Origin: a virus
Taxonomy: Duplodnaviria; Caudoviricetes
DNA length: 64,000 bases
Strand: one strand, 5' to 3'
Virus record (IMG/VR): IMGVR_UViG_3300037492_000170
Coordinates: 32,001 to 96,000 of that record
Shown here: positions 728 through 35,941 of the stretch, one piece after another
How the letters are laid out: each line of letters starts with the position of its first letter
Numbering within the stretch: the stretch's first letter is position 1
The notes under the pieces: generated by a model
What the model was told of the DNA's origin: nothing
Databases searched by the model: none
The model's input: only the letters and a program-made list of their open reading frames with translations
Made by a program: the position numbers and the translations under genes

Positions 728-1283
728 TCTAGCAAATCATATTAAAATGTACCCGCACTCAGCAATCATGGAAAAAGAAGGTAGGCTTTATGGGCAGTGG
801 ATAATAGGAAACAACTACCGGGCTACACAACCATATCATGGTTCCTACCCTCCATCATATGTGGAGCGCGTTAAATCTTTATTCCCAGACAATAAAAAGA
901 TACTACATCTATACTCTGGGATGGTCCAACCAGCAGAAGGAGAACAGACATTCGATATAAACCCTGCTTTAAACCCCACAAAATGTGGTAAAGCTGAGGA
1001 GTTATCTGATTATTTTTCTGAAAACGCTTTCAGTTTAGTCTTGGCAGACCCGCCATATACTCCAGCAGACGCTGCTAAATATGGTGCCAAGATGCCTATC
1101 ACGTACAGAGTTATGTCCGAGCTGTATAAAATCGTGGAGGTGGGGGGCGTAGTCGTGTGGCTTTGTACTAGAATACCACTTTGGAAAAAGATTGAGTGGA
1201 AATTGCTGGGAGTAATAGGGCTCTTTTGTGGCACTAATAGGGTGTATCGTGCTGTTGTTCTACTTCAAAAAATTAATGCTTGA
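708..1283 (+). CDS. putative amino (N6-adenine/N4-cytosine) methyltransferase
   Basis: ILHLYSG motif-I-like segment, DINP, and catalytic LVLADPPY motif. Confidence 0.7.
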   Translation: MRYRVHNLANHIKMYPHSAIMEKEGRLYGQWIIGNNYRATQPYHGSYPPSYVERVKSLFPDNKKILHLYSGMVQPAEGEQTFDINPALNPTKCGKAEELSDYFSENAFSLVLADPPYTPADAAKYGAKMPITYRVMSELYKIVEVGGVVVWLCTRIPLWKKIEWKLLGVIGLFCGTNRVYRAVVLLQKINA

Positions 1284-1307
1284 CAAAAAATTCTAAAATG
1301 GTATAAT
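1280..1307 (+). promoter_or_regulatory. sigma70-type promoter of the Y RNA/tRNA/ro60 operon
   Basis: TTGACA (1280-1285), 16-nt spacer with extended TG, TATAAT (1302-1307). Confidence 0.85.
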
Positions 1308-1336
1308 ACCCCCTAGTTTGGAAGCAGATAATTTTC

Positions 1337-1470
1337 GGGAGCGTCGGAGATGACACTTACTTCTCATGCTAAGAGAGAGAGAGACCTTGGTGCAAATCCA
1401 AGCGGGTATGCTTGCATATCTGTGGGCAAGTAGCAAGCCGCGTTGTCAGTGTCTTCGCTTCTTACCTCCC
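1337..1470 (+). ncRNA. Y RNA-like element Y1 (YrlA-like, circularly permuted tRNA cargo)
   Basis: GGGAG/CTCCC and GACACT/AGTGTC stems, CGTCG and TACTTC boxes; inside: anticodon-like arm, T arm CTTGG-TGCAAAT-CCAAG, loop-closed acceptor stem, D arm; upstream of ro60. Confidence 0.8.
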
Positions 1471-1484
1471 AACTTGTTTATTAC

Positions 1485-1551
1485 CAGTGGCGACGAATGA
1501 TAAGGATACTTCATGCTAAGAAAAACTCCCTATCAGTAAACTATCCCACTG
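1485..1551 (+). ncRNA. Y RNA-like element Y2
   Basis: CAGTGG/CCACTG and TGATAAGGA/TCCCTATCA stems; GACGAATG fits the bacterial Y RNA GNCGAAN(0-1)G motif; TACTTC box. Confidence 0.75.
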
Positions 1552-1561
1552 ATTATTATAA

Positions 1562-1629
1562 ACGAGCGGCGTTAGTGAGGATTACTTCATCTGAATTGAA
1601 AAAAACATCTTCACTGTTCCTTCCCTCGT
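1562..1629 (+). ncRNA. Y RNA-like element Y3
   Basis: ACGAG/CTCGT and AGTGAGGAT/ATCTTCACT stems; CGGCG and TACTTC boxes. Confidence 0.75.
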
Positions 1630-1644
1630 ATCATCTCTAGGTAG

Positions 1645-1756
1645 ACGTGCGGCGGCTGTATCAGGTACTTCGTGTAACTGGTTAAACACTCTTCCTAATC
1701 GGGAGACTTTCTGGGTTCAAATCCCAGAGTACCCCTGATACAAATATTACCCACGT
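1645..1756 (+). ncRNA. Y RNA-like element Y4 with embedded tRNA cloverleaf
   Basis: ACGTG/CACGT and TGTATCAGG/CCTGATACA stems; CGGCG and TACTTC boxes; enclosed D arm, anticodon arm and T arm (CTGGG-TTCAAAT-CCCAG). Confidence 0.8.
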
Positions 1757-1768
1757 TACTAAAATATA

Positions 1769-1828
1769 TCCTTGTGCCCGGATTAATTTTCCACCGAGCA
1801 ATAAGCTCAACAGCACAGGGAGTTTTTT
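1769..1828 (+). ncRNA. small three-way-junction RNA or terminator-like element
   Basis: TCCTTGTGC/GCACAGGGA closing stem, two inner hairpins, followed by T6. Confidence 0.4.
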
Positions 1829-1841
1829 AATGGGTGATTAA

Positions 1842-2012
1842 ATGACAAAAGATGAAACCATAAAACGTCTTTCTTCGTCTCTTTATGACGCAGCCTCTAA
1901 CCGCCAAGAAGATAAATCCCCAGAAGCAGTATTGAAAACTGTCTCACAGTGGTTAGAAGAATTACCTACTGAGATGGAAAAGCTATTGAAAGAGAAAGAA
2001 TCGGCTGGTTAG
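1842..2012 (+). CDS. small hypothetical protein (56 aa) inside the RNA operon
   Basis: GGGTGA RBS-like sequence, ATG 1842 to TAG 2012 (MTKDETIKRLSSSLYDAA...); the last codons overlap tRNA-Asp. Confidence 0.55.
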   Translation: MTKDETIKRLSSSLYDAASNRQEDKSPEAVLKTVSQWLEELPTEMEKLLKEKESAG

Positions 2013-2076
2013 TGTAGAGGTAACACATTGGATTGTCTATCCAATTTCAAGGGTTCAATTCCCTTACCAGTCGCCA
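2003..2076 (+). tRNA. trnD: tRNA-Asp(GTC)
   Basis: GGCTGGT/ACCAGTC acceptor, TTGGA-TTGTCTA-TCCAA anticodon arm, G73, encoded CCA. Confidence 0.92.
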
Positions 2077-2081
2077 AGTAT

Positions 2082-2156
2082 TGCGGGATAGTTCAGTAGA
2101 AGAACGCGTGGCTCATACCCACGAAGTCGAGAGTGCAATTCTCTCTCCCGCGACCA
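2082..2156 (+). tRNA. trnM: tRNA-Met(CAT), initiator-like
   Basis: TGCGGGA/TCCCGCG acceptor (weak 1:72 pair), CGTGG-CTCATAC-CCACG arm, CCA. Confidence 0.85.
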
Positions 2157-2258
2157 GTGGTGAAAGGGTGAATGCGTAACATATTGTTATTAGCCTCATC
2201 CAACCAGGGGATGGCACTTCGATTACGAATACAGTCATCCCCACTTATTTAAAAATAC

Positions 2259-2344
2259 GGAGGGGTGGGCGAGTGGTTGATGCCAACGGTCCTGAACACC
2301 GTAGGTCGAAAGACCCGTAGGTTCGAATCCTACTCCCTCTTCCA
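2259..2344 (+). tRNA. trnS: tRNA-Ser(TGA)
   Basis: ACGGT-CCTGAAC-ACCGT arm, long variable arm, GTTCGAATCC T arm, CCA; has C33 and U73. Confidence 0.85.
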
Positions 2345-2351
2345 TTAATAT

Positions 2352-2427
2352 GCCGGTGTAGCTCAATTGGCAGAGCAACTGACCTGTAATCAGTTTGTTG
2401 GGGGTTCGATTCCTCCTACCGGCTCCA
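2352..2427 (+). tRNA. trnT: tRNA-Thr(TGT)
   Basis: GCCGGTG/TACCGGC acceptor, ACTGA-CCTGTAA-TCAGT arm (C33), CCA. Confidence 0.88.
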
Positions 2428-2433
2428 GTGAAT

Positions 2434-2519
2434 GCAGGAGTGGAGGAATGGCATACTCAACGGACTTAAAATCCGTTGCCAGAAATGGATTGAGGGTTCG
2501 ACTCCCTCCTCCTGTACCA
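2434..2519 (+). tRNA. trnL: tRNA-Leu(TAA)
   Basis: ACGGA-CTTAAAA-TCCGT arm, long variable arm, A73, CCA. Confidence 0.92.
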
Positions 2520-2525
2520 GTATAC

Positions 2526-2603
2526 GGGGGTGTCGCTCAAATAGGTAGAAGCGCCTGGTTTAGAGCCAGTTCAGTAAAAGTTCGAATCTTTTCACCCCTA
2601 CCA
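2526..2603 (+). tRNA. tRNA with TAG anticodon (nominally Leu) on a short-variable-loop, Pro-like body
   Basis: GGGGGTG/CACCCCT acceptor, CTGG-TTTAGAG-CCAG arm, AAAAG-TTCGAAT-CTTTT T arm, CCA. Confidence 0.75.
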
Positions 2604-2609
2604 ATCAAT

Positions 2610-2687
2610 TCCCTGGTAGCTCAGTTGGTAGTAGCGTGTGACTGTTAATCACAAGGTTCGCAGGTTCGAGACCTGCCCAGGGAGCCA
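2610..2687 (+). tRNA. trnN: tRNA-Asn(GTT)
   Basis: TCCCTGG/CCAGGGA acceptor, TGTGA-CTGTTAA-TCACA arm, G73, CCA. Confidence 0.93.
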
Positions 2688-2694
2688 ATAAACG

Positions 2695-2779
2695 GGGGAA
2701 GCTGTAGAGATAGAGAGCTACGCTAGTCTGTAAAACTAGTCCTTCGGGTGAGCAGGGGCGGTACCTGCCTTCCCCACCA
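2695..2779 (+). tRNA. trnY: tRNA-Tyr(GTA), non-canonical D and T loops
   Basis: GGGGAAG/CTTCCCC acceptor, CTAGT-CTGTAAA-ACTAG arm, variable arm, T loop GGCGGTA, CCA. Confidence 0.85.
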
Positions 2780-2800
2780 GAATGGCTGAATAAGCCTAAA

Positions 2801-2871
2801 GCGGAGCGGCGGAGACTAGAGATACTTCAAACTGTTACTTTGACCAAACTCTAGTCAACACTACCCTCCAC
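2801..2871 (+). ncRNA. Y RNA-like element Y5, directly upstream of ro60
   Basis: GGAG/CTCC and GACTAGAG/CTCTAGTC stems; CGGCG, TACTTC and CTACC boxes; inner TCAAA-CTGTTAC-TTTGA hairpin. Confidence 0.78.
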
Positions 2872-2907
2872 ATCCTTTAATTCCACCAACACATATGGGA
2901 GGCGAAC

Positions 2908-4470
2908 ATGTCAAGATTCAATCAAAAAGCTGTTAATCCGAGGGATACAATCAACCATGAGGGTGCAAAAGCTTATGGTATGTTGAATCCAGAAATGGAG
3001 CTGTACGCCAGGACCGCTAGTTATCTGGCACAGGACACCAACTACTGCAAGGTTGCTGATGCAAATGCGCGCATCAAGGAACTTGTTGGCATCTGCGATA
3101 AGAACTTTGTTGGTAGACTTGCAGGGTACTTGAGACATCAGATGTATCTCAGGTCCACACCCATCTTGTTACTGACTTATCTTGCACAGTGCGGGAAGCT
3201 GGAAGCGTGGATGGTGCAAGATGTCATCTCTAGGGCTGACGAGATTAAAGAGTTGCTTGCAGCATGGCAGCAAGAGACTGGCAGAAGGGACCTAAAGAAG
3301 CTTCCGAAGGCTATGCAGAATGGTATTGCAAAAGCATTCGGTAAGTTTAACGCGTTCCAGTTCAGGAAGTACAACAAGCAGGGCAGAGAGGAAATCACAT
3401 TCCTCGATGCTATGCGTATCACCCATCCGAAGCCCATGAATGAGGAGCAGAATACCACTTATAAGGCTATTAAAGAGGGTAATCTCCCACCGATTGAAAC
3501 ATGGGAAACCGTGCTATCATCTGGTATGAATAAGAGAGAAGCGTGGGAGCTACTTATCAAGGGGCACAAGCTTCCCTACATGGCACTTCTACGTAACCTG
3601 GTTAACATCTCTAAAGCCGATGTTGATAATGTCTACATAGATATGGTTGTTAATCAACTCACCAACAAGGATGAGATTCTCAGGTCTAAGCAGTTCCCGT
3701 TCAGATGGACTGCTGCTCACGACCAGCTAGAGCTTATGGGAGGAAACCAATTCATTACCACCGCATTCCAGCGCGCACTTGAAGAGGCTCTGAAGACTTC
3801 AGTACAGAACATTGCTGGGCTTAACTTGAAACAGAACACTATAATAGCTTGTGATGTGTCAGGGTCCATGCGTAATCCACTCAGCGTTAAGTCTAAAATT
3901 CAGCTTGTAGATGTGGGTTTGCTTATGGGTAAGTTAATTAGCGCGCATAATCCCAGGTCTTTGTATGGTGTGTTTGGTGACATCTGGATGCCTGTACATA
4001 GTGGCTCCTCTGTTCTAGAGAAAGCTTACTATGACCCCCACCAGATAGGGTTCTCCACACAGGGGCATAAGGTTATTGATTGGGCTGCAGATAACAACAT
4101 AAAGGCAGAGGTGTTCATGTTCTTCTCAGACATGGAAATTTATTCCCTTTCTGATAAGGACTTCTTTCGTAGTACCTCTAGATTGTATCTACCCATTACT
4201 AACACAGTTACTTGGGATGAAAGGAGAGCATCATTTAGAAAATCATGGAACAATTATAAGAAGCTTATGCCTAACGCTAAGTGTTACTTGTTTGATTTAT
4301 CTTCTTATGGCAGCACACCAGTTGATGTTCAGCGTGATGATGTTATCTTCTCTTCTGGTTTTTCTGAGAAGATATTTGAAGTGCTGGATGGTACTGGAAA
4401 CTGGAACGAAACACGAACTAAAATAATGATGGGAGCTAGTAAAGTAAGGGAGGAGGAAATGGCAGCATGA
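2908..4470 (+). CDS. rsr: Ro60/Rsr RNA-binding protein (TROVE + vWA)
   Basis: TINHEGAKAY start, YLRHQMYLRS, LPYMALLRNL, QFPFR TROVE motifs and vWA MIDAS DVSGSM; GGGAGG RBS. Confidence 0.95.
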   Translation: MSRFNQKAVNPRDTINHEGAKAYGMLNPEMELYARTASYLAQDTNYCKVADANARIKELVGICDKNFVGRLAGYLRHQMYLRSTPILLLTYLAQCGKLEAWMVQDVISRADEIKELLAAWQQETGRRDLKKLPKAMQNGIAKAFGKFNAFQFRKYNKQGREEITFLDAMRITHPKPMNEEQNTTYKAIKEGNLPPIETWETVLSSGMNKREAWELLIKGHKLPYMALLRNLVNISKADVDNVYIDMVVNQLTNKDEILRSKQFPFRWTAAHDQLELMGGNQFITTAFQRALEEALKTSVQNIAGLNLKQNTIIACDVSGSMRNPLSVKSKIQLVDVGLLMGKLISAHNPRSLYGVFGDIWMPVHSGSSVLEKAYYDPHQIGFSTQGHKVIDWAADNNIKAEVFMFFSDMEIYSLSDKDFFRSTSRLYLPITNTVTWDERRASFRKSWNNYKKLMPNAKCYLFDLSSYGSTPVDVQRDDVIFSSGFSEKIFEVLDGTGNWNETRTKIMMGASKVREEEMAA

Positions 4471-4712
4471 GTAAATTACTAATTATTATCCTAGTGTTAT
4501 TTGGAGCAGCTCAAAGTTGGGCACAAAGCAAGGATGTTAGGAACAGCAGCGGTGAGCTAGTTCAGGTATGGCGGCAACAGGGTAATCAGACTGATGTAAG
4601 AAGCGGAGATAACGAACTGTTGTATACACGTAACAGACAGGGTAACACTGTTACTATACGAAGCGCATCAGGAGAGGAAGAAGGGAGCGAGTACTACGAT
4701 GACAGGGATTAA
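4467..4712 (+). CDS. small exported protein with short beta repeats
   Basis: Signal-peptide-like N-terminus; three DVR/TIR-xxxGE-type repeats; ATGA overlap with ro60. Confidence 0.65.
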   Translation: MSKLLIIILVLFGAAQSWAQSKDVRNSSGELVQVWRQQGNQTDVRSGDNELLYTRNRQGNTVTIRSASGEEEGSEYYDDRD

Positions 4713-5016
4713 AATTCCATTGGAGATTAGTGACCTTAATACATTATTGGATTTAATAAATAGGAAGCCGGGTAAGACGAGAACCACCGACCACGGTGTT
4801 GGCGTACATGGGAGCATATTCATGGAGAATAAGAAGATAGACAGAAGAGTAGAAGCAGGACCACCGATAAATATCATAACGATGAGACTAACCGAGAGTG
4901 AACTTTATACTCTACGCTGGGCTTTGCAGACTGCCATTACGCAGTCTAGGGAGGGTGACTTCAATCCTAAGACAACTAAGGTAATTGAGAAGATTCTTAA
5001 AGGATTGGGTGACTAA
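4699..5016 (+). CDS. hypothetical protein
   Basis: ORF overlapping the upstream gene and ending at a terminator. Confidence 0.6.
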   Translation: MTGIKIPLEISDLNTLLDLINRKPGKTRTTDHGVGVHGSIFMENKKIDRRVEAGPPINIITMRLTESELYTLRWALQTAITQSREGDFNPKTTKVIEKILKGLGD

Positions 5017-5048: not shown

Positions 5049-6753
5049 ATACCGCTGTTGTCGGGATAGCCGGAGGCTTAGGAGAAGGAACAGCGGGAGG
5101 CTTAGCCGGAGGGGTCGCTGGTGTTTCTGGAGGGGTATCCGTAGGAGTAGTTGGGGTATCAGGTAACTTGGCTGTATCTACCGGAGGTTTATCCTGGGGC
5201 GATCCTGATGCTGTTTCCAACTCAGGTATAACCAACCTACCTTGGTCAAGTAACTTTCCTACTATTGCATACGGATAATCAGCCCACACTGCATTAATCT
5301 TACTAATCTGTGTACCCATAAGATTGTTCAACATATCAATTCCGTTGTTAATGGAAGTGGCTCCCATCGAACCAAAAGACTTCATGGCATTGATTATATC
5401 ATTGGTGCCCACCGTCTGCGGACCCTTGCTTTTATACTCCCAGAGAAAGCATTCAAACTCCCCCCACACTACAGTACGATTTATAATCTCATCAAATGAT
5501 GTTCGTTCAGGGATAAAAATTTGCTGCTCAGCAAGCATCTGTGCTGTGAAGGCACTGGAGTAAGAATAAACTCCAATCCCCCCAAGGTATAGGGCAGGTA
5601 ATCTAAAAGCCTGACGAATTACATCGTAAGAGTTTTCCATATACCCCTTAAACATGAGGTCTTGGTTCCTGTTAGAAATCATGTTCTCAATTCTTATCTT
5701 AACATTCGAATCATTATCAAGCCCTGTTATCTCTGGCACTGCTTCCAGTAAACCTGTCCTGTTGAAATTGTCTGCACTTCTAAACGATTGAATTAAGTCC
5801 TGCAGCTCTGCTCTAGAATCATCCGTCAGCGAACCATTCTCCACTATGATTAACATAGGGGGGATGCCTTGGTTATCAAACAAGTCGAAGTTCACATACT
5901 GTGCTGTGGACCTGCCAGCAACCTCAGTCAACGCGCCTATCCAGCGCGGCACACCATAAGCCTTCCCGCCAAAGTTATTCTTAATCCAAAGCAACTCAGT
6001 AGCTAATTCTGTACTCTTACCGCCACCTTTGGTTGTAAGATACTCTCCTGTCAACGCGTCCATCGGTCTGGTATCCCCAAAGGTTTTGAACCACTTGAGT
6101 TTGTTATCAGACTGGTTGACCTGTACATACCTACGAAACTTCTTCTTTATATTAAAAGCAGTAGGATTACCGTCTCGTATGATTATAGTCTTTACATTAA
6201 CCGGATCTGTATCCAGGTAACACATCCTGGTATCTGTAACAGGATTGTAATAAGCAAAGGTAAGAAGGTTAGTCTTGGGTCGTCTAACCATTTCTATGGC
6301 TGAATAGCCTACCACCTCATAATCCTCACGCGCAAGAACGCGCACTGATTGAAATGACTGATCCTCATTAACTTGGTCAAAGAAGTTTTCAAGTAACATC
6401 TTCTGCCGCTGAGCTTCTGAAGAATCTCGCTCGGTTAAATCATTGCCTTTGAAGACAAGTTCATACCCAAACCCATCAACATTCTTCTGCATAGCTTTGA
6501 CACACGCCTGTAAGACATCTGATGATTCATATGTGCTGTATAGTGACGAAGGTATCATATCAGGCTGGATGATAGCCTCATACGCGCCGTAGTAATCAAT
6601 GAACGGGTCTTTATCTTCGCGCCCGCGCCCAAGCATATCTGGAGGTCCAGACCCACCTGTCTTTAAAGGTGTGACTTCATTAACTCGTTGTGTTCTAAAC
6701 TTAGTCACACCCAAATTTATTCTACTCCGCTCTTGTAGTTCTTCATCAGTCAT
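5047..6753 (-). CDS. phage portal protein
   Basis: YGVPRWIGAL, FDNQGIPPMLIIVENGSL and IRQAFRLPALYLG match PBSX-type portals; Pro/Thr-rich tail. Confidence 0.88.
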   Translation of the reverse strand: MTDEELQERSRINLGVTKFRTQRVNEVTPLKTGGSGPPDMLGRGREDKDPFIDYYGAYEAIIQPDMIPSSLYSTYESSDVLQACVKAMQKNVDGFGYELVFKGNDLTERDSSEAQRQKMLLENFFDQVNEDQSFQSVRVLAREDYEVVGYSAIEMVRRPKTNLLTFAYYNPVTDTRMCYLDTDPVNVKTIIIRDGNPTAFNIKKKFRRYVQVNQSDNKLKWFKTFGDTRPMDALTGEYLTTKGGGKSTELATELLWIKNNFGGKAYGVPRWIGALTEVAGRSTAQYVNFDLFDNQGIPPMLIIVENGSLTDDSRAELQDLIQSFRSADNFNRTGLLEAVPEITGLDNDSNVKIRIENMISNRNQDLMFKGYMENSYDVIRQAFRLPALYLGGIGVYSYSSAFTAQMLAEQQIFIPERTSFDEIINRTVVWGEFECFLWEYKSKGPQTVGTNDIINAMKSFGSMGATSINNGIDMLNNLMGTQISKINAVWADYPYAIVGKLLDQGRLVIPELETASGSPQDKPPVDTAKLPDTPTTPTDTPPETPATPPAKPPAVPSPKPPAIPTTAV

Positions 6754-9311
6754 GTAATATATTCCTCCAAATCTGCATAATTATATCCTACCTTCGCCTC
6801 TACTACCCAAGGCACTTTCAATTCCACCCCAAAATATTCCTTTAGGGGGAGATTTTCCATCTCATATTGTATTATTGGTGCATAAAAGTCAACCCTATCT
6901 TCTCTACATTCGAAGATTAACTCATCATGAACAAATAAAATTGCTTTTATCTCTTTAGGATTCAACAATCCCTTTCGAAGAAGTTCATTGCAAGCCAGTA
7001 GTACAGAGTCTGAGGCAGCCGCCTGTATAGAATGGTTATAAGCCTGTCGTTCACTCCTTCCCGCGGCTTCCTGGTCTAGTGAATTTATCTCAGGGAGTCT
7101 CCTACGTCTACCAAGGGGGGACGAAACGTAACCAAGTTTCCTGGCTGACTTCCGTATCTTACTATGATAGGCTGCAATCCCTGGATACGTTTTAAAGAAT
7201 AGTGCATGATAATGCTTAGCTTCATCTATAGTCAAATCAATATCGTATTGAAGTTTGGCATATTTCTGATATCCATATACCCCCATCCCATATAACAACC
7301 CAAAGACGAGAGACTTTGCGCGCTTACGCGCAAGCTTGAAATCGTCTTCAGGAACCTCGTCCCTAGTCTTACCCAAAAGAAGTTCTGCGGTCTTAGTATG
7401 CACATCCTCCTTATTCCTGTATACCTCCAACAAGGTCGGGTCCTCAGAACAGTGAGCCATCCACCTAACCTCCGCCTGAGACGCATCCAACGCTAAGAAT
7501 ACTGAACCAGGCTTGGCTATTATAAGCCTACGCATCTCCCTGCCGGTACCACTAGCAGGTATGTTCTGTAAGTTAGGCGCGTTGACACTCGTACGCCCAG
7601 TAGTAGCAGTAACTAAAGAATAGGTGGGATGAATCCTACCGTCAGACCTGACTGACTGCTCGAAGTTCTTAATATATCTAGTGACTAAAGTGTTTAATTT
7701 ACTCCACTCCTCATATACCACTATAAACTCTAAAGCCTTCTTATGAATCCTGCCTTTATCCTTCAGATAATTCCTAGCCTTAGCATCTACACTAAAGGTG
7801 CCCCCCTTCGAAGTCTTGAAAATGGGCTCCAAGTGATAACCATCCTCTGCAAACAACACATCTCTAATTAAACCCGCTCTCGTAAGCTTTATCCCTTGTG
7901 GTGTGTGTCTCTCCAATACACCGGGGGGGATGAGTGCCACAGCGAGCTTATAACATGAGACTAATTCTCTAGATATTGTATCCTTAACAATAGGAAGTTG
8001 TTCCATATCAACCAACGCGCCATTGTTAGCAAACTCAAACAGCGACGTTGATATTGTAGGCATCACAAACTTAGAGAAATAATTAGCTACGCGTTTAGTT
8101 TCAAGAAGTCTGTTGCGCGTACTTATAGCAGAGACGTAAGTGGTCGCTGCATCGGCACACGCGTAGTAGGATAGTTCGCTGCAAGGAACGGATAACATAT
8201 TGGACTTATCGAATTTGTTGTCAAACTCAGTAGAGTAAGAAGAATCTAGGGTAGTGAAGTGCTTCCTAACCTGCTCTAAAGATGCTCTGGCGTGAAGGTT
8301 CTCATCTAAAAGATGAGCCGCAGCCTGAACATCCATACCATAAGCTCTTGGTTTAATGGGGGGAAGTCCCTCACGAATACAGAGCGCGTTGATGAATAGT
8401 AAATCAAAATTTCCATTGAACATGTACTTGATAATATCTGGAGATTCTATCAAACGCACAAGGTCACTCAGCTTCTTATCGAAGTTGGTGGACTTCCTAA
8501 CCCCTATTTTCTGTTCTACCTTCTTTCTACCGACCTTGGCAGTAAAATCAACATAAAAATCCGGATTATCTTCACACATCTCATGCAGATATACCTGGTA
8601 TGCGGTCTCCTGATCAGCACACAGTGAATAAGATATAAGAAGATTGTTATTGCCTAGCCAATCAAGTCCCTGTGTCTCTGTATCTAAAGCAACTGCCCTT
8701 GGTTTCTCATCGAACAACTTATCCAAACTCTCCAGTTCTTTAAATCTGAATGTGCTCATGGGATCAATTGGCACACAACCACTATCAAGAAAGCGTTTAA
8801 TCTTAGCAAAATCTGTGATTAGTTCAGACGTAAAGCTGTGAGCGCGTAGACAATAAGCCGGGTGATAGGTAGGAAGCACCCAGCAATTAAACTCCTCAGA
8901 CCATACAAAAACACCGTGCCTCTTCTTTATGTTACGCTGCCTCATTACCTGCCATGTAGCTATATCCCCGAGTGTAACAATCAGTTTAGGTTTGATAGCT
9001 GTGGCAGCTCTAACCATAAATCTTCTACAGTGTTGGAGAAGAGTGTTCACTTCTTTTACAGTATAAGCATCCTTATCAATCCTACACACAGCAGCGTTTG
9101 ATAGAAAAAAACTATCTAGATTAAGCTCGGTAAGAAATGCTACTTTCTTAAGCAGGTCTCCAGAGGGACCAACAAAAGGTTGTCCTTCTACCAACTCCAT
9201 TCTTCCAGGTGATTCCCCAACTAGCATTACATCAGCGTTGACATTACCTCTAAACGGAACTTGTTTTAGTCTCCGATAGTTTGGGCATTCTTTGTCAAGA
9301 CACTTCTGCAT
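6750..9311 (-). CDS. polA: family A DNA polymerase with N-terminal family-4 uracil-DNA glycosylase domain (SPO1-like)
   Basis: GESPG..E...GQPFVGPSG and TYHPA (UDG); DTET exonuclease; TGRTS..PNLQN, DASQAEVR, KSLVFGLLYG and VHDE polymerase motifs. Confidence 0.95.
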   Translation of the reverse strand: MQKCLDKECPNYRRLKQVPFRGNVNADVMLVGESPGRMELVEGQPFVGPSGDLLKKVAFLTELNLDSFFLSNAAVCRIDKDAYTVKEVNTLLQHCRRFMVRAATAIKPKLIVTLGDIATWQVMRQRNIKKRHGVFVWSEEFNCWVLPTYHPAYCLRAHSFTSELITDFAKIKRFLDSGCVPIDPMSTFRFKELESLDKLFDEKPRAVALDTETQGLDWLGNNNLLISYSLCADQETAYQVYLHEMCEDNPDFYVDFTAKVGRKKVEQKIGVRKSTNFDKKLSDLVRLIESPDIIKYMFNGNFDLLFINALCIREGLPPIKPRAYGMDVQAAAHLLDENLHARASLEQVRKHFTTLDSSYSTEFDNKFDKSNMLSVPCSELSYYACADAATTYVSAISTRNRLLETKRVANYFSKFVMPTISTSLFEFANNGALVDMEQLPIVKDTISRELVSCYKLAVALIPPGVLERHTPQGIKLTRAGLIRDVLFAEDGYHLEPIFKTSKGGTFSVDAKARNYLKDKGRIHKKALEFIVVYEEWSKLNTLVTRYIKNFEQSVRSDGRIHPTYSLVTATTGRTSVNAPNLQNIPASGTGREMRRLIIAKPGSVFLALDASQAEVRWMAHCSEDPTLLEVYRNKEDVHTKTAELLLGKTRDEVPEDDFKLARKRAKSLVFGLLYGMGVYGYQKYAKLQYDIDLTIDEAKHYHALFFKTYPGIAAYHSKIRKSARKLGYVSSPLGRRRRLPEINSLDQEAAGRSERQAYNHSIQAAASDSVLLACNELLRKGLLNPKEIKAILFVHDELIFECREDRVDFYAPIIQYEMENLPLKEYFGVELKVPWVVEAKVGYNYADLEEYIT

Positions 9312-12128: not shown

Positions 12129-13010
12129 TCAATACGTTCCTATCCCCCCCCGATTAATCCAGAAGCTATAGTTGCTCTTGTTGAATAAATATGGATTACC
12201 ATCAATAACAAAAGTGCCACCAGCATTCCATTTCGGGAAAGTATTTATTCTAGTAGACTTATACTCTGTATGCAATGGGTCACGCATACAACCACCATCA
12301 ACAATCCAATACTTACCAGATTTATCAAACCCGGTCGCTTGATGATGTGTATGCCCACATATTATATTCTTATGATAAATAGAAGCTAACTCTCTAGCAA
12401 CAGCGAGCGGGAGTCTACTATAGTTATCCTGGTGTGCCACAAGGATTTCCGTCCCCCCCGATTCAAGAACACAATAAGAATACTCTGAGAACTCCACACC
12501 GGCTAGGCTCTTAAAGAAGTCAGCAATAGTTATCTCCCCATCAAGCTTATGAGCCAAGCGTCGCTCATGATTCCCTGTAGTGCAATGCACTTCGGAGAAC
12601 AGACTCAGAAAAATTCGTAGTATCTTTACTGCTGGTTCTAACTCTTCTTTAAATGCAAGTTTATAAACCGTTGAGCGCGCCCATTTAGAGAAACTATCGA
12701 GTGATATAAAGTCTCCATTGATGATGAGAGTTTTAATATCAAACTTTTTAGCTATAGAACATGCTTGTTCTAATATCTCTGGGTCGTGGCACGGTACTTC
12801 TACATCTCCTATTACCATTGCCCGGTCTGCCTTAACCGTCATAAATTCGTCATACTTGGGCGTGCTGGGTTTTGGAATGGTCTGCCTTAAATCCAGTTTC
12901 CACCTCCTGATACTTCTCTTTGATACATCATATTTTATTGCGAGGTCTGCATTAGACATTCTTGCTGCTTCTATTCTGAACTCTTCTTCATTCTTCATGT
13001 TTCGTCCCAT
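12129..13010 (-). CDS. calcineurin-like metallophosphoesterase with N-terminal HTH
   Basis: GDVE, NGD, GNHE and GHTH motifs; LAIKYDVSKRSIRRW helix-turn-helix. Confidence 0.85.
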   Translation of the reverse strand: MGRNMKNEEEFRIEAARMSNADLAIKYDVSKRSIRRWKLDLRQTIPKPSTPKYDEFMTVKADRAMVIGDVEVPCHDPEILEQACSIAKKFDIKTLIINGDFISLDSFSKWARSTVYKLAFKEELEPAVKILRIFLSLFSEVHCTTGNHERRLAHKLDGEITIADFFKSLAGVEFSEYSYCVLESGGTEILVAHQDNYSRLPLAVARELASIYHKNIICGHTHHQATGFDKSGKYWIVDGGCMRDPLHTEYKSTRINTFPKWNAGGTFVIDGNPYLFNKSNYSFWINRGGIGTY

Positions 13011-15166: not shown

Positions 15167-15256
15167 CTTGCACCTCCTATTAGTGCGTCCTAGACTGTTT
15201 CTTAGAGGCAGGTCAGCTAGGATACTGACTTTTCGGGTACGTTGCCCTAGCCTCTA
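15167..15256 (-). ncRNA. HNH-associated pseudoknotted leader RNA, copy A
   Basis: TAGAGGC/GCCTCTA P1, TA-GGG..CCC-GAA, GTCAG/CTGAC P3; loop TCCTAG pairs with downstream CTAGGA. Confidence 0.75.
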
Positions 15257-15353
15257 TTGTTATTATACTCACATTTTGGCAGGGATGAGCCATAAGAAGA
15301 TGATGACGATAATTAGAAAAGCCAAAGCACCCAGATATAACGCGAACTCGCGG

Positions 15354-22367: not shown

Positions 22368-22458
22368 AACTACCTCCTGTAGTATTATCCTGATTTTGTT
22401 AGTTAATGGGCAGGTGGTTCAGGAATACCACTGTTCGGGAGCTACCCTAGCCCATTAA
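22368..22458 (-). ncRNA. HNH-associated pseudoknotted leader RNA, copy B
   Basis: TTAATGGGC/GCCCATTAA P1, TAGGGTAGCTCCCGAA; loop TCCTGA pairs with downstream TCAGGA. Confidence 0.75.
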
Positions 22459-23845: not shown

Positions 23846-25042
23846 CTAACCCATATACCTTCTAGGTCGTTTATTACTCAGCGCGCGACCACCGACAGCC
23901 GTATGCGCATACCACGCCCAAACATTCAACTGACGCGCCCGCGATCCACAATCAGCACCAGTACCCCAACTACCACCGGCAATCAGCTTATAAAAACCAT
24001 AAGTTCCCTGAGAAAAAACCTGGCCTCTGGTTCCTGTTACATCTTTCCATCCAAATGCTACTCCTGTAGCATAATCAGCACCTTGGACTGGAGTAAGAGA
24101 ATCATTTAACCATTGCCAAAGAACACCAGCACAATCTTCACAACCAATGTTGGAAATCATTCTTCTACCTGCGGTATCTGAATGACCTGATGTCGTAACA
24201 GGGTCAGCACCTGCAGTAATATTAGTAGCTTCGTTGGAACCTGTTGCAATATACGTAAACTCATGATCGAACAAGAGACGTTTGTTTACTAAAGCAGTAT
24301 CATCTACAAAATCATATTGAGTTCTTGTATCTGATATTGTAGCTCCATTAACTGAAGCAGTTGAAGCACCAGTACCTGAGATAAGATAAATATCAACCCA
24401 AGCTGAAATTCCTGCTGCATAAACCATACCTTCGTTACCAGATTCTGCTCTATGCCATAAGTCCCATACTGAAAGAGGTAAAATATCTCCAGCGAGATAA
24501 TCTGTAAGAGTATGCCCAGAAATAGTACCAACTGCAACACATAAACAATGAAAACCACCTACTTTTCTGGAAGTAGATGCAGAATATCCCGAAGGGGTAG
24601 TTGAATTAGCTGAAATCTTAACTACCGGAACTGTACCAGAAACAGGTTGACACATATAAATATAGAAATCTTTACCTGCTCTATTGGCAGCAGTAGTGTA
24701 GTCAGTACCAGAAACAGTATCCCAAGAACCAGCAGTGTTTAAATCTAAGGTAGTCTGAGCAATAAGTTTTAGTGAAACAGTATCAATCTTAACTTCTACT
24801 TCATTAGGAGAATAAAGAGTTCTCCTTAATGTAGCTGAACCGGAACCACCTTGATACCAACATTCTGAACGTTCATAGTGATATTTCTTGTAACCAGTAC
24901 CAATGAAATATTTTACCCCATTATACGGAATAAATAGTTTACCAGTATCAGTTGCAAGGGCTATCTCTAAATCTTGAAGTGAAGCACTGACCGATGCAGA
25001 TATTACTGCCTCAGTCCCATAACGAATTAATGGCTTCAACAT
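23846..25042 (-). CDS. Mtd-like receptor-binding protein with C-type-lectin variable region (DGR target 1)
   Basis: Mtd_N-like N-terminus, GGFH, GRRMISNIGCEDCAGVLWQW and GGSW...CGSR...VGGR motifs. Confidence 0.88.
   Translation of the reverse strand: MLKPLIRYGTEAVISASVSASLQDLEIALATDTGKLFIPYNGVKYFIGTGYKKYHYERSECWYQGGSGSATLRRTLYSPNEVEVKIDTVSLKLIAQTTLDLNTAGSWDTVSGTDYTTAANRAGKDFYIYMCQPVSGTVPVVKISANSTTPSGYSASTSRKVGGFHCLCVAVGTISGHTLTDYLAGDILPLSVWDLWHRAESGNEGMVYAAGISAWVDIYLISGTGASTASVNGATISDTRTQYDFVDDTALVNKRLLFDHEFTYIATGSNEATNITAGADPVTTSGHSDTAGRRMISNIGCEDCAGVLWQWLNDSLTPVQGADYATGVAFGWKDVTGTRGQVFSQGTYGFYKLIAGGSWGTGADCGSRARQLNVWAWYAHTAVGGRALSNKRPRRYMG
23869..23985 (-). repeat. DGR variable region VR1 with IMH-like 3' end
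   Basis: Differs from VR2 almost only at positions where one copy has A; shared CGCGCGCTGAGTAATAAACG end. Confidence 0.75.
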
Positions 25043-25053
25043 AATACTTCTCC

Positions 25054-25344
25054 TTAAACCAAGGCAGCTTCTACTTCTTCAACTGTAAATCCTAACCTAA
25101 ACAACTTACAATTAGTATCTAGTTTCAGCTCTTGCTGGATTGTTATGGGCTCATTAGTCTCAGTATCCTGTGATTCAATCAATCTATGAGTCGCGTCAGT
25201 GATTCCTTCGCCAGTTAGCTCCACATTATCCCAGATTAGCCTGTCATCGTAGAGCGTCTGCCAATAATCCTTCCAATTATCTTGGTTTTCCCTCACATAC
25301 TCATAATCAAATTTTGTATTCAAATGTCTTGCTAAACCTTCCAT
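25054..25344 (-). CDS. small acidic fiber-associated protein
   Basis: HLNTKFDYEYVR...LFRLGFTVEEVE; lies between the two Mtd-like genes. Confidence 0.65.
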   Translation of the reverse strand: MEGLARHLNTKFDYEYVRENQDNWKDYWQTLYDDRLIWDNVELTGEGITDATHRLIESQDTETNEPITIQQELKLDTNCKLFRLGFTVEEVEAALV

Positions 25345-25426
25345 TATATTACTCCTATCCTTTGTAGTTTATAGTGGGCAGGTAGCTAAGGTTTCTACTT
25401 TTCGGTTCCGGTAACCTAGCCCATTA
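25345..25426 (-). ncRNA. leader RNA copy C (no HNH downstream)
   Basis: TAATGGGC-TAGG..CCGAAAA-GTAG-AAACCTTAG-CTAC-CT-GCCCACTA; the pseudoknot partner is degenerate. Confidence 0.7.
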
Positions 25427-25431
25427 AATTA

Positions 25432-26835
25432 TTAGCACCGTTTATTACTCAGCGCGCGACTACCGATATCCGCATTCGCAAACCACGCCCAAGTACTCAA
25501 AATACGCGCCCGCGACCCACACTTAGCACCATAATTCCAACCACCACTGGCAATCAGCTTATAAAAACCATAAGTTCCTTGGGAATTAACTTGACCTCTG
25601 GTTCCTGTTACATCTTTCCATCCAAATGCTACTCCTGTAGCATAATCAGCACCTTGGACCGAAGCAAGAGAATCATTTAACCATTGCCAAATAGTACCAG
25701 CACAATCTTCACAACCAATGTTGGAAATCATTCTTCTAGTGCTAACCCCCGCTACCGAATTCATGTGTCCACCAGTCGTTATTGGGTCTGCGTAAGCAAA
25801 TGTAGGTTTAGCAGCACCCTGGTCTGCTGTATAAGTTCCATTAGTAATTACTTCGCCTAATGTAAATGCTCCGGTTCTGCTCTTAACAGTGTATGTTAGA
25901 CTCGTTAAAACTGTTACAATAACACAGGTTTTAGTACTTGTTTGTCCAGTTAATGTATCTCCTGCTACCCAAGCAGTTCCTGGTGCTACATCTAAAGTAA
26001 GCAATTCATAATCTATATTAGTAGCTTCGTTGGAACCTGTTGCAATATACGTAAACTCATGATCGAACAAGAGACGTTTGTTTACTAAAGCAGTATCATC
26101 TACAAAATCATATTGAGTTCTTGTATCTGATATTGTAGCTCCATTAACTGAAGCAGTAGAAGCACCAGTACCTGAGATAAGATATATGTCTACCCAAGCT
26201 GAGATACCAGAAGCATAAACCATACCTTCGTTACCAGATTCTGCTCTATGCCATAATTCCCATACTGAAAGAGGTAAAATATCTCCAGCGAGATAACCTG
26301 TAAGAGTATGATTTGATATAGTTCCTACTGCAACACATAAACAATGAAAACCTCCTACTTTTCTGGAAGTAGATGCAGAATAACCAGATGGAACTGTTGA
26401 GTTAGCACTGATTTTAATCACTGGAACTGTACCAGAAACAGGTTGACACATGTAAATATAGAAATCTTTACCTGCTCTATTGGCAGCAGTAGTGTAGTCA
26501 GTACCAGAAACAGTATCCCAAGAACCTGCGGTATTAAGATCCAAGATTGTCTGGACGGCTAACTTGAGGCTGACTGTGTCAATCTTAATCTCTATTTCAT
26601 TAGGAGAATAAAGAGTTCTCCTTAATGTAGCTGAACCGGAACCACCTTGATACCAACATTCTGAACGTTCATAATGATATTTCTTGTAACCAGTACCAAT
26701 AAAATATTTTACCCCGTTATATGGAATAAATAGTTTACCAGTATCAGTTGCAAGGGCTATCTCTAAATCATTTAACACGTCGCTAGTAGCAGCGACAATT
26801 GATGCTTCTGTTCCATGTCGAATTAAAGGTCTCAT
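25432..26835 (-). CDS. Mtd-like receptor-binding protein (DGR target 2) with an internal insertion
   Basis: Near-identical to 23846-25042 apart from a ~75-aa insert and the variable region. Confidence 0.88.
   Translation of the reverse strand: MRPLIRHGTEASIVAATSDVLNDLEIALATDTGKLFIPYNGVKYFIGTGYKKYHYERSECWYQGGSGSATLRRTLYSPNEIEIKIDTVSLKLAVQTILDLNTAGSWDTVSGTDYTTAANRAGKDFYIYMCQPVSGTVPVIKISANSTVPSGYSASTSRKVGGFHCLCVAVGTISNHTLTGYLAGDILPLSVWELWHRAESGNEGMVYASGISAWVDIYLISGTGASTASVNGATISDTRTQYDFVDDTALVNKRLLFDHEFTYIATGSNEATNIDYELLTLDVAPGTAWVAGDTLTGQTSTKTCVIVTVLTSLTYTVKSRTGAFTLGEVITNGTYTADQGAAKPTFAYADPITTGGHMNSVAGVSTRRMISNIGCEDCAGTIWQWLNDSLASVQGADYATGVAFGWKDVTGTRGQVNSQGTYGFYKLIASGGWNYGAKCGSRARILSTWAWFANADIGSRALSNKRC
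25439..25556 (-). repeat. DGR variable region VR2
   Basis: Aligns without gaps to VR1. Confidence 0.75.
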
Positions 26836-26851
26836 ATATTATCTCCTTGAA

Positions 26852-27148
26852 CTAAGTTACCACCATTCCGCCTACAAGTAAATAGGAAGTATACATTCCA
26901 TCTACCGGAGGTGTGTTATCTACTAAATAACCACCACCAAATATCCAAGCATCGAGTGTACCAGAAGCGTCTGCAATAGGAACTTTTGAGGCGGTTGGTA
27001 TTGCTGTAGGAACAGGGTATTTCTGCCTCGTAGTACCATCATAAACTACAATCTTCTTAGTGTCTGTAGTAAACGCAATCTCACCTGTTTCTAGGGTAGT
27101 AGCGTCTACTACTGCCTCAGTTCCACGTTTTAATTGGAATTTGATCAT
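26852..27148 (-). CDS. short Mtd_N-domain fiber/adaptor protein
   Basis: FQLKRGT...GEIAFTTDTKKIVVYDG motif. Confidence 0.7.
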   Translation of the reverse strand: MIKFQLKRGTEAVVDATTLETGEIAFTTDTKKIVVYDGTTRQKYPVPTAIPTASKVPIADASGTLDAWIFGGGYLVDNTPPVDGMYTSYLLVGGMVVT

Positions 27149-27157
27149 AGGAACCCC

Positions 27158-28920: not shown

Positions 28921-29012
28921 TTCACTCCTTATTGTGTTATCCTTAGAAGTTATTTAATGGGAAGGCGGCTAAGGTTTCCGCTTTATCGGGTGTACACCCC
29001 TATCCCATTAAA
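28921..29012 (-). ncRNA. HNH-associated pseudoknotted leader RNA, copy D
   Basis: TTAATGGGA/TCCCATTAA P1, GCGG/CCGC P3; loop CCTTAG pairs with downstream CTAAGG. Confidence 0.75.
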
Positions 29013-29021
29013 ACTACAATA

Positions 29022-29600: not shown

Positions 29601-29601
29601 A

Positions 29602-30015: not shown

Positions 30016-30018
30016 ATT

Positions 30019-30249: not shown

Positions 30250-30276
30250 CTGTCTACCTCCCTTTTGTTTTACAGT

Positions 30277-30627: not shown

Positions 30628-30628
30628 T

Positions 30629-34214: not shown

Positions 34215-34305
34215 AATATCACTCCTTATGGTGTTTATCCTTAGTGATTATCATGGGCAGGCCGCTAAGGTTTCGGCTCTTCGGGTCTAGATTCCCTAGC
34301 CCATG
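34215..34305 (-). ncRNA. HNH-associated pseudoknotted leader RNA, copy E
   Basis: CATGGGC/GCCCATG P1, GCCG/CGGC P3; loop CCTTAG pairs with CTAAGG; overlaps the 3' end of the upstream glycosyltransferase gene. Confidence 0.75.
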
Positions 34306-35941
34306 CTAAAACTTGTTCAATAGCTTCTATAACTTCCTCCACAGAATGATTCATACAATCATGGTCTGGCAAAGGACACTGTTCTCTATCTTGTTGATAT
34401 GGTTGATTATTAAAGCATTTATATTCTATAGGGCACGGCTTCCACAAGTTAACTCTATCGGGACCCTCATGACCATACTGCTCTGGTCTAGTCCTCCCAA
34501 ACATGGTTACTGTTGGTACATCAAAAGCTGCTGCCACATGACTCCCCATAGTGTCCAAACTAACTACAAGGCTTGAAGAAGAAATCCATCGAAAAGCTTC
34601 TCTAAATTTAAGGTTTGATATCGACACAACCTTATCAAAAGAATCGTGCTGCTCCTCACCTGTCAGGTGGATAACATCATAACCCTTTTCAGTTAGATAA
34701 TCAATAATAGCCTGCCATCTGTCATTGGACCAATACTTAGTTCTGCTGATGTCTGAGAAATCAAAGAGTTTAGCATTACTTTGCGGGCATATAACAACAT
34801 AAGGTCCACTATTCTCCATAGGCTCTATTCCAAATATCTGTGGGCGCGTACTTGGAGCCACGGGAACATCTATCATCCTGCAATACGCCTCAGATATGTG
34901 TCCCTCCCACTTATTCTCTGCCATCCAACTATATATACTCTTCTCTACTCGATATGTTCTCTGTGCATCAAACTGACCCTTGGCTATCTCATCAATATCT
35001 GGATTTCCTTTGAATACGTGCTCACCGTAAGGATGATAGACTGATATATTTCGTTCTGGATACATCTCTCGTAGTTGCCTGAAAGCAGGTTCAGACATAA
35101 CCAAATCCCCGATAGCGTGACTCAAAGAAATGTGAATACCTGGTTTCAAGTTCTTCTTCAAAATATTGAACCTACGTAAATCATCGAGAGATTTACTCCC
35201 GTCTTTTACTGCTCTCGCTCCACCAGTACCTGCCCGGAAATGATATGCTATCGCCCCTGGATGCACTAATACTTTCATACCTTCGAGATGAACGCGCCAG
35301 GACAAGTGTGTATCCTCTCTATGAAAATTCAAGAGAACCGTCTCAAACCCATTAATCCGGTCGAGTGCTGCCTCTGTTAACATCATAGCAGAGTTTATAT
35401 GCTCCACCGGAAAAGGCTTCTTCCTAGTGTGAAGGGACCACTGAACATTAACACTGTCACTAAGATGCTCAATAGTTCCGTGTTTATATCTATCATCGTC
35501 GAGTTTAAAGGTATCCGGTTTCGTCCCGGCGAATAGCATGAGTCCAGATGCAGCACCTACAAGTGGGTCATCGAACAAAGGAACTACCTTTTCCAAGTAG
35601 TCTGGAGATAACCACGAGTCATCCTCTGCTCGATATACCAAGGGATTCCCCCAGTCACGCGCACCTAACCACCCGGCTTGGTATACCGCCCCTACATGAT
35701 AAGTGCTTGGTCCTGGTAGAATTCTTATTCTATGCCCCTGCATCTGTAATTCACCAATAATTTTAGAATAAAGTGAATGCTTGGTCCACTTCTCCTGCGT
35801 AAATGCAACATCATCAGAGTCGTCTACGATACATAAATCAAAGTTTTTAAATGTTTGCATCCTCAAACTGAACAATAGCTGATGCACAATATCCATGCGG
35901 TTGTGCGTCGCAACTATCACTGTCACCCGTTTATTGGACAT
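34265..35941 (-). CDS. GT2 + GT9 (heptosyltransferase-like) double glycosyltransferase
   Basis: VATHNR, VDDS, EDD and REDT (GT2); AIGDLV, KYW, SLDTMGSHVAAAFDVPTVTMFG (GT9). Confidence 0.88.
   Translation of the reverse strand: MSNKRVTVIVATHNRMDIVHQLLFSLRMQTFKNFDLCIVDDSDDVAFTQEKWTKHSLYSKIIGELQMQGHRIRILPGPSTYHVGAVYQAGWLGARDWGNPLVYRAEDDSWLSPDYLEKVVPLFDDPLVGAASGLMLFAGTKPDTFKLDDDRYKHGTIEHLSDSVNVQWSLHTRKKPFPVEHINSAMMLTEAALDRINGFETVLLNFHREDTHLSWRVHLEGMKVLVHPGAIAYHFRAGTGGARAVKDGSKSLDDLRRFNILKKNLKPGIHISLSHAIGDLVMSEPAFRQLREMYPERNISVYHPYGEHVFKGNPDIDEIAKGQFDAQRTYRVEKSIYSWMAENKWEGHISEAYCRMIDVPVAPSTRPQIFGIEPMENSGPYVVICPQSNAKLFDFSDISRTKYWSNDRWQAIIDYLTEKGYDVIHLTGEEQHDSFDKVVSISNLKFREAFRWISSSSLVVSLDTMGSHVAAAFDVPTVTMFGRTRPEQYGHEGPDRVNLWKPCPIEYKCFNNQPYQQDREQCPLPDHDCMNHSVEEVIEAIEQVLAWARESRPEEPKP

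Follow-up and report, generated by a model that had tools for sequence, protein, structure and literature searches.

Five Y RNA-like elements on a common scaffold upstream of a phage ro60 gene

Ro60 and Y RNAs are conserved from bacteria to humans. The purpose of the Ro60 ribonucleoproteins (RNPs) of bacteria and phages, and of having several Y RNAs in one species, is still largely an open question. Here, we describe a ro60 locus in a tailed freshwater phage (Duplodnaviria; Caudoviricetes) that is known from the IMG/VR virus record IMGVR_UViG_3300037492_000170. The stretch analysed, called the window below, consists of 64,000 nucleotides (positions 32,001 to 96,000 of that record), and coordinates refer to the window unless the genome is named. 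Upstream of ro60 lie five copies (Y1 to Y5) of a conserved, covarying and ro60-linked RNA scaffold, which carry three types of head and share one apparent transcription unit with tRNA genes and ro60 (Table 1).

Table 1. Predicted features of the ro60 locus and other features of the phage genome named in the text (ORF, open reading frame; R2, covariance model described in the text).
Feature	Position	Strand	Remarks
Promoter, sigma-70 type, TTGACA-16-TATAAT with extended -10 TG	1280..1307	+	12/12 consensus positions matched
Y1, long YrlA-type Y RNA	1337..1470	+	R2 33.9 bits, E 1e-6; outside training set
Y2, minimal hairpin-type Y RNA, loop AUGCUAA	1486..1550	+	R2 E 9.5e-10; fold z = -3.4
Y3, minimal hairpin-type Y RNA, loop UCUGAAU	1562..1629	+	R2 E 2e-14; fold z = -2.8
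Y4, Y RNA with non-permuted tRNA-like cloverleaf head	1645..1756	+	R2 E 4e-7; outside training set
Structured stretch ending in U-run	1769..1828	+	fold z = -3.0; no call by terminator scan
56-aa ORF between Y4 and tRNA-Asp	1842..2012	+	
Seven tRNA genes: Asp GUC, Met CAU, Ser UGA, Thr UGU, Leu UAA, Leu UAG, Asn GUU	2003..2687	+	
tRNA-Tyr(GUA)-like gene, unannotated	2695..2779	+	ARAGORN at 80% threshold only
Y5, minimal hairpin-type Y RNA, loop CUGUUAC	2802..2870	+	R2 E 3e-12; fold z = -3.8
ro60, TROVE-domain RNA-binding protein, 520 aa	2908..4470	+	Pfam TROVE, PHROG 850
Metallophosphoesterase	12129..13010		
Rfam int-alpA RNA (RF02996), five matches	15188..15257, 22388..22457, 25359..25426, 28941..29010, 34238..34306	-	39.6-45.6 bits; cut-off 35.8
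tRNA nucleotidyltransferase (CCA-adding enzyme)	genome 905..2170		PHROG 2244, 2e-83
RNA ligase with N-terminal OB fold	genome 17115..18125		Pfam RNA_ligase 5e-27; PHROG 968 1.6e-65

The ro60 gene and the elements upstream of it

Judged by its matches, the product of the last gene in the locus is a TROVE/Ro60 protein, as an earlier note on this DNA had proposed. It reaches 88.5 bits against Pfam TROVE (cut-off 23; 7.3e-25) and matches PHROG 850, 'RNA-binding protein', over residues 1-508 of 520 (3.4e-45), and the nearest solved structure is the Ro60 of Thermus phage phiLo (9KOP/9L5Y, 8.5e-18). The vWA part of the protein is weakly supported, since the vWA_Ro60 match (20.7 bits) falls under the cut-off of 27.7. 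The nearest homologues are metagenomic proteins (41-48% identity), and because Bacteroidota Ro60s come next (about 34-40%), a Bacteroidota host is suggested for the phage.

All five elements lie on the same strand as ro60, 38-1571 nt upstream of it. Sequence, folds and the covariance model R2 (see below) agree on the common architecture that the earlier note had recognised, with element ends that were off by at most 1 nt. Each element begins with a 5-bp terminal stem, CG(G/A/U)CG, a second stem of 8-10 bp and the box UACUUC; beyond a variable middle come the strand that pairs back to the second stem, a pyrimidine-rich strand with UAYC or UUCC at its end, and the strand that closes the terminal stem. 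The minimum-energy folds show this shape in all five elements, and fold z-scores of -2.8 to -3.8 were obtained for four of them.

The middle of the element, or head, differs from copy to copy. Y2, Y3 and Y5 have a minimal head, whereas Y1 is, by the order of its modules, predicted to be a YrlA-type copy: four hairpins follow UACUUC, the first with loop AUGCUAA, the second like a T arm, the third closed and the fourth like a D arm. This order was read from the sequence and the fold and by comparison with YrlA-type long elements; the T loop and the D arm are degenerate. In Y4, the head consists of a D arm, an anticodon-like arm and a T arm, and ARAGORN names its inside (1663-1735) a tRNA-Ile(aat), which the Rfam tRNA model scores at 32.2 bits against a cut-off of 29. 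In the fold, the UACUUC box partly pairs as an acceptor stem. The Y4 cloverleaf sits inside the stems of the scaffold, lacks a CCA and, if its loop is read as one of 7 nt, has a pyrimidine at position 37. It is most likely a tRNA mimic, not a decoding tRNA. The earlier note had called the variable middles tRNA-derived cargo, and this was right in part: it holds for the cloverleaf of Y4 and the T-arm-like hairpin of Y1, and a signature of anticodon loops is frequent in the hairpin that follows the box (see below).

The expectation of one strong promoter ahead of the array stood up well, in that a perfect TTGACA-16-TGnTATAAT, predicted by consensus matching, is the sole such match within 1100-4800. 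A scan for promoters and terminators found none at the flanks of the individual elements. The structured stretch behind the first four Y RNAs is possibly a leaky terminator or a processing site. The small ORF that follows it has no match in Pfam or PHROG, and its stretch is retained in a related phage.

The tRNA count of the same note needs revision: it had listed eight, but the tRNA-Ile(aat) of ARAGORN is the inside of Y4, which leaves seven ordinary tRNAs and, in addition, the tRNA-Tyr-like gene. The latter has a full cloverleaf in which the variable arm is long and CCA is encoded, but the T loop (GGCGGUA) is non-canonical and the D loop lacks GG. It was missed by default ARAGORN and by Rfam tRNA (E <= 10), and minimum-energy folding of 2692-2790 yields no tRNA cloverleaf (z = 0.34), so that the cloverleaf depends on ARAGORN at the lowered threshold. 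Between tRNA-Met and tRNA-Ser, the spacer at 2157-2258 (plus strand) contains two stable hairpins (z = -3.9, equalled by 0/200 shuffles) with no family match in Rfam.

How this region changes is seen in a 17-kb contig that another sample yielded for a related phage. Blocks 1336-1581, 2014-2431 and 2530-2773 are replaced there by stretches of different length between flanks that are 95-100% identical. The two phages share the promoter, Y4, the small ORF, Y5 and the start of ro60, while the Y1-Y3 stretch (246 nt here) has become one of about 876 nt and parts of the tRNA block have also been exchanged. Such swapped blocks between conserved flanks argue that the Y RNA/tRNA region evolves by cassette exchange.

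A scaffold family linked to ro60

The closest viral relatives of the locus were reached via an alignment of metagenomic homologues; a single-protein search for ro60 loci in viral contigs had returned nothing, and blastn of 1200-4500 against isolate phages gave tRNA similarity only. In the three closest relatives (L002, L003 and L005), the plain motif CGNCG-12 nt-ACTTC forms clusters of four to six matches just 5' of ro60. Motif descriptors were of limited use for a wider survey: a strict version missed Y2 and Y5, and a looser one chose wrong 3' partners in long elements, so covariance models were used. The first, R1, was trained on seven short elements, of which three belong to the window and four to the loci of these relatives. 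A search of 499 kb with it returned 59 matches at E <= 1, every one on the strand of ro60. Among metagenome loci, one of the 78 R1 matches, a weak one (E 0.51), was on the minus strand. R1 was not kept as the final model, having missed Y1 and Y4 even with filters off.

The second model, R2, was built from 47 R1 matches, only three of them from the window, and recovers both Y1 and Y4, which were in no training set. Run on both strands of the window with filters off, R2 returns exactly the five elements of Table 1, with E-values from 1e-6 to 2e-14 and the next match at E = 3.2. The other 59 kb of the genome contain nothing better than E = 1.5.

At a threshold of E <= 0.01, the R2 matches number 123 in viral loci (53 searched), 203 in metagenome loci (80 searched) and 263 in loci from bacterial genomes (80 searched), the last mostly Bacteroidota (Chitinophaga, Flavobacterium, Dokdonia, Emticicia, Hymenobacter and others). 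Together, these are 589 matches in 213 Ro60 loci outside the window, every one of them on the ro60 strand, and the proposal that the elements are tied to ro60 in other genomes is thereby borne out. The number of copies per viral locus ranges from none (10 loci) through one (10), two (8), three (13), four (5) and five (4) to six (3). Four of the ten viral loci without a match start at or within 20 nt of the ro60 start and hence have no upstream flank. Among bacteria, one Dokdonia locus has eight copies, and several loci of Chitinophaga, Flavobacterium and Sporocytophaga have six.

Named phages were searched with R2 at E <= 1 with filters off. Caulobacter phage CcrColossus has eight copies upstream of ro60, Xanthomonas phage Tenjo five, and Streptomyces phage Satis one. 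The four copies of crAss001, one of them weak (E 0.79), lie downstream of its TROVE gene, and Thermus phage phiLo has two matches just downstream of ro60, one again weak (E 0.63). No match was found under these settings in Vibrio phage Va1. One of the phiLo matches (L134 4518-4579, E 3.5e-5) begins 15 nt downstream of the Ro60 gene and overlaps the hypothetical ORF phiLo_25.

The earlier note had regarded a multi-cargo array as something unusual. Arrays of two to eight copies are instead the norm beside Ro60, and the phage locus is an ordinary member of a widespread arrangement. In the chromosome of the bacterium Emticicia sp. C21 (L169 460-2423), the DNA upstream of ro60 has five R2 matches in alternation with at least eight tRNA genes, so that phages are not alone in interleaving Y RNAs with tRNAs.

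Where the elements stand relative to ro60 bears on an alternative explanation, in which they act in cis: the long leader of the ro60 mRNA would contain them as repeated sites for Ro60 binding or nuclease processing, through which ro60 translation (autoregulation) or tRNA processing would be set. In the viral loci, 114 of the 123 matches precede ro60 on its own strand, by a median of 359 nt and often by no more than a few hundred; in the window, Y5 ends 38 nt from the ro60 start codon; and, as noted above, individual elements have no flanking promoters or terminators of their own. All of this would suit a leader. In most bacterial and metagenome loci, however, the arrays are downstream of ro60, which a leader does not fit. 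Moreover, characterised Y RNAs also lie upstream of rsr and yet are described as being cut from a common precursor and accumulating as separate RNAs bound to Ro60 (PMC4201824), and every element closes on its own terminal stem, with short spacers between elements. Considering these points, a cis-acting role seems improbable.

The structure of the scaffold was examined in alignments of the surveyed elements. In R2, the scaffold consists of a 5-bp terminal stem, the G-rich internal loop GGCGUAG, a 9-bp second stem, the UACUUC box and a pyrimidine-rich 3' strand, and its consensus reads GGCGUAG ... UACUUC ... UUUGUUCC. The 'box' CG(G/A/T)CG that had been listed as conserved is better taken as a local variant of this GGCGUAG (or GNCGAA) motif. 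In three alignments fitted to the model, all 14 stem pairs (14/14) have changed on both sides; paired cells make up 90.3-93.3%, a share that drops to 40-56% once the 3' partner is shifted by 1-3 columns, and none of 500 shuffles (0/500) reached the observed covariation score. The DNA form of the box, TACTTC, is present in 373 of 381 unique elements. The claim that stems differ between copies but keep pairing, while boxes are conserved, agrees well with these figures.

These figures also speak to the idea of tRNA genes in decay, or of a selfish repeat spreading within tRNA clusters, as the source of the elements, with the link to Ro60 as a by-product of a shared hypervariable region. Y4 does score as a tRNA, the region is a tRNA cluster, and its blocks are swapped in a closely related phage. 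But a near-invariant box together with compensatory stem changes over 381 unique elements argues for selection on structure; arrays also stand beside ro60 where the locus has no tRNA gene (L002 and L030, for example); and no copy is found elsewhere in the 122.7-kb genome. We consider this origin highly improbable, more so than a cis-acting leader.

Relation to known Y RNAs and a proposed Ro60 RNP

Phage Ro60 genes with Y RNAs, and the concept of a Ro60-binding module joined to an exchangeable effector module, have been known since 2014. By sequence comparison, the five elements of the window are Y RNAs of the YrlA lineage, and the scaffold is their predicted Ro60-binding end in a variant beyond the curated model, because R2 also recovers the published YrlA of CcrColossus. 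Table S2 of Chen et al. 2014 gives one YrlA for this phage, at 108824-108959 (PMC4201824), and the R2 match (L136 2499-2630) corresponds to 108827-108958. In gut loci, the first R2 element agrees in size and place with the YrlA of the Bacteroides rows of Table S1, which has 143 nt and lies 35-41 nt after Ro (PMC4201824). Another R2 match in CcrColossus (L136 2170-2332) contains an annotated 'tRNA-Gln' (L136 2173-2240; NC_019406.1 109217-109284) that spans the 5' scaffold and a T arm. This 'tRNA-Gln' is probably a mis-called piece of a Y RNA.

The long elements lead in the same direction. Among 157 long elements with the box, 98 have an early T-loop motif, 24 have a late T loop as in a normal tRNA, and 35 have none; of the 98 with an early T arm, the 11 inspected mostly continue with a closed hairpin and then a D arm, which is the permuted order of YrlA. 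The Rfam YrlA model itself (RF02553) misses this family, its cut-off of 69 bits being reached neither in the window nor in any of the 56 loci scanned (0/56). That cut-off requires a T arm, a closed acceptor hairpin and a D arm. The Rfam model gives weak partial matches within R2 elements of other loci, with a maximum of 34 bits (L028), over the part from T arm to D arm, and within 1200-3000 of the window it touches only true tRNAs (22.6 and 16.5 bits against 69). No other Rfam family was found on the five elements at gathering thresholds or at E <= 10, taking the scaffold as a whole; the inside of Y4 matches tRNA, as described. UACUUC may be the counterpart of 'AUGCUU' in the Rfam YrlA consensus, an equation that comes from one weak alignment and is uncertain.

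The known systems resemble the phage locus in several respects. As described in the 2014 account, YrlA and YrlB RNAs are same-strand neighbours of Ro60, have paired ends with a GNCGAA-like motif, are co-transcribed with tRNAs, and comprise one RNA per locus with a permuted head (T arm, closed acceptor-like hairpin, D arm) beside others that are plain hairpins (PMC4201824). The 'long hairpin' Y RNAs of that account, YrlB and Yrn2, are comparable to the minimal hairpins Y2, Y3 and Y5 (PMC4201824). There are also differences: the table rows of 2014 give one YrlA per Ro60, against five Y RNAs here and up to eight elsewhere (PMC4201824), and an extra hairpin follows the box here, while Salmonella YrlA is described as having no anticodon loop (10.1101/312249). 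Y4 also resembles Yrn1 of Deinococcus radiodurans, which by its description alone has a D arm, an anticodon-like arm and a T arm in normal order and shares its precursor transcript with a second Y RNA and a tRNA; its Ro-binding helix differs, however, in resembling animal Y RNAs on both strands (PMC4201824).

Among phages, phiLo likewise encodes its own Ro60, the closest solved structure, and this protein is reported to bind two phage-encoded Y-like RNAs, Yrl1 and Yrl2, where the present locus has five, and to form a complex with host PNPase (PMC12135203). Bas63 gp130 is a Ro60-like phage gene beside a tRNA cluster, and genetic evidence indicates that it counters the ppl defence (10.1101/2024.10.10.617714). 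Its authors suspect that some annotated tRNAs are Y RNAs; these are left undefined in the published description, from which the likeness is drawn (10.1101/2024.10.10.617714). The TROVE proteins of jumbo phages have been discussed as platforms for RNA repair (PMC7824862).

How could five RNAs with three types of head serve one Ro60? We think it probable that non-coding RNAs and ro60 form one polycistronic operon at this locus, in which the Y RNAs share a Ro60-binding module and the heads recruit different partners. A single strong promoter would serve ro60, the five genes for Y RNAs and the seven or eight for tRNAs, and the Y RNAs would be excised from the precursor, probably by host tRNA-processing nucleases. 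Each excised RNA would bind the ring of the phage Ro60 through a predicted module composed of a 5-bp stem formed by its own ends, an asymmetric loop that is G-rich on the 5' side (a GNCGAA variant) and pyrimidine-rich on the 3' side, and a 9-bp stem closed by UACUUC. The head (permuted and tRNA-like as in YrlA for Y1, a cloverleaf in normal order for Y4, a short hairpin with a 7-nt loop for Y2, Y3 and Y5) would then tether Ro60, or gate it, towards a different partner: an exoribonuclease such as PNPase, tRNA-handling enzymes or damaged tRNAs. Published work on other systems provides precedents for several of these steps. Y RNAs are described as being cut from polycistronic precursors that include a tRNA and as accumulating as separate RNAs bound to Ro60, with at least two per species (PMC4201824), and as tethering Ro60 to PNPase, a complex that the Ro60 of phiLo forms with the enzyme of its host (PMC12135203).

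Several observations weigh against this interpretation. None of the RNA runs searched for the stretch contains it. The fold of Y1 is no stabler than that of shuffled sequence (z = -0.3), and fitting the covariation alignments to the model favours the structure. The motif GNCGAAN(0-1)G, which the earlier note had correctly reported as exact in Y2, occurs there (1492-1499) and in no other of the five elements; the other four have at this site CG(G/U)CG followed by different letters, with GGCGUAG as the family consensus. The Rfam YrlA model finds nothing on the five elements at E <= 10. Finally, R2 has no match upstream of the phiLo ro60 gene, where the paper puts Yrl1 and Yrl2 (PMC12135203), both of its matches being downstream.

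In the literature searched, we found no account of large Y RNA arrays (5-8 copies) or of anticodon-mimic Y RNAs, and none of a UACUUC-type scaffold consensus, of three head types on one scaffold or of the anticodon-loop signature described below. Many Ro60 genes are accompanied by arrays of three to eight Y RNAs that combine one recognisable scaffold with exchangeable heads. Current family models miss these arrays, as the Rfam YrlA scan illustrates, and some copies carry a tRNA annotation, as in CcrColossus; a scaffold model would permit their systematic annotation. Culturable systems with arrays include CcrColossus on Caulobacter, Xanthomonas phage Tenjo, crAss001, and Chitinophaga or Flavobacterium.

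Anticodon-like hairpins and the genomic setting

The hairpin that follows the UACUUC box was surveyed in the 373 unique elements with the box. In 78 of them, the box contains the start of a hairpin with 4 bp or more and a loop of 7 nt, against 17.9 when the 30 nt following the box are shuffled; other loop sizes exceed the shuffled count by at most about one. U at position 2 together with a purine at position 6 occurs in 52 of the 78 loops (16% in shuffles), and 36 of the 78 fit the anticodon-loop pattern Y-U-NNN-R-A (1.1% in shuffles). The middle triplets of the 52 loops are of 24 kinds. Only about one-fifth of the elements have a hairpin by this strict definition.

The loops of the window are AUGCUAA (Y1 and Y2), UCUGAAU (Y3) and CUGUUAC (Y5), and similar loops are carried by the phage's own tRNA-Ser(UGA) and tRNA-Asn(GUU). 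Read hypothetically as anticodons, the window loops would be Ser-GCU twice, Ser-UGA and Asn-GUU, and loops elsewhere would, on the same hypothesis, include Tyr-GUA, Lys-UUU, Lys-CUU, Phe-GAA, Gln-UUG, Cys-GCA and others. Perhaps the post-box hairpin is an anticodon stem-loop mimic, so that arrays display a changing panel of mimics on Ro60 and the RNPs decoy or sense enzymes that read anticodons, or guide Ro60-linked repair or decay to cleaved tRNAs. We hold this to be doubtful, if less so than either of the alternatives weighed above. The leading candidates for the enzymes to be decoyed or sensed would, speculatively, be the anticodon nucleases of anti-phage defence. Because the loops of orthologous copies in L003 and L005 differ, and because so small a fraction of elements qualifies, mimicry of particular tRNAs is kept as a hypothesis. 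If it were true, cassette swapping, RNA ligase, CCA-adding enzyme, tRNAs and Ro60 RNPs would be parts of one tRNA-protection system.

The virus record comprises 122,744 bp, is linear and is about 99% complete according to CheckV, and near-identical DNA is present in lake-water and sediment metagenomes. Two extra tRNA genes, tRNA-Gln and tRNA-His, lie elsewhere in the genome near the genes for the CCA-adding enzyme and the RNA ligase. Together with Ro60 and the tRNAs, these two enzymes look like an RNA-repair set. Since the phage encodes them, a role of the Ro60 RNPs in tRNA repair or counter-defence is plausible, and the anticodon-loop-like hairpins together with neighbouring RNA-repair genes make a link to tRNA damage and anti-phage defence a concrete hypothesis.

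Structural and replication genes of the genome include those for a portal, for tail and baseplate proteins, for several fibres with Mtd domains and for a family-A DNA polymerase that has a UDG domain at its N terminus. The polymerase gene (6750-9311, minus strand) fuses the domain of the uracil-DNA glycosylase (UDG) superfamily to exonuclease and polymerase domains. At 23846-32826 (minus strand), five ORFs have Mtd (major tropism determinant) N-terminal or second domains and one ORF has DUF2793; an endosialidase-chaperone domain is also present in one of them. These ORFs look like a set of paralogous receptor-binding fibre genes. The five int-alpA matches fall in the region of fibre and glycosyltransferase genes, where each is intergenic and has the predicted start of a minus-strand gene 14-24 nt downstream; they resemble a leader or regulatory RNA that is repeated.

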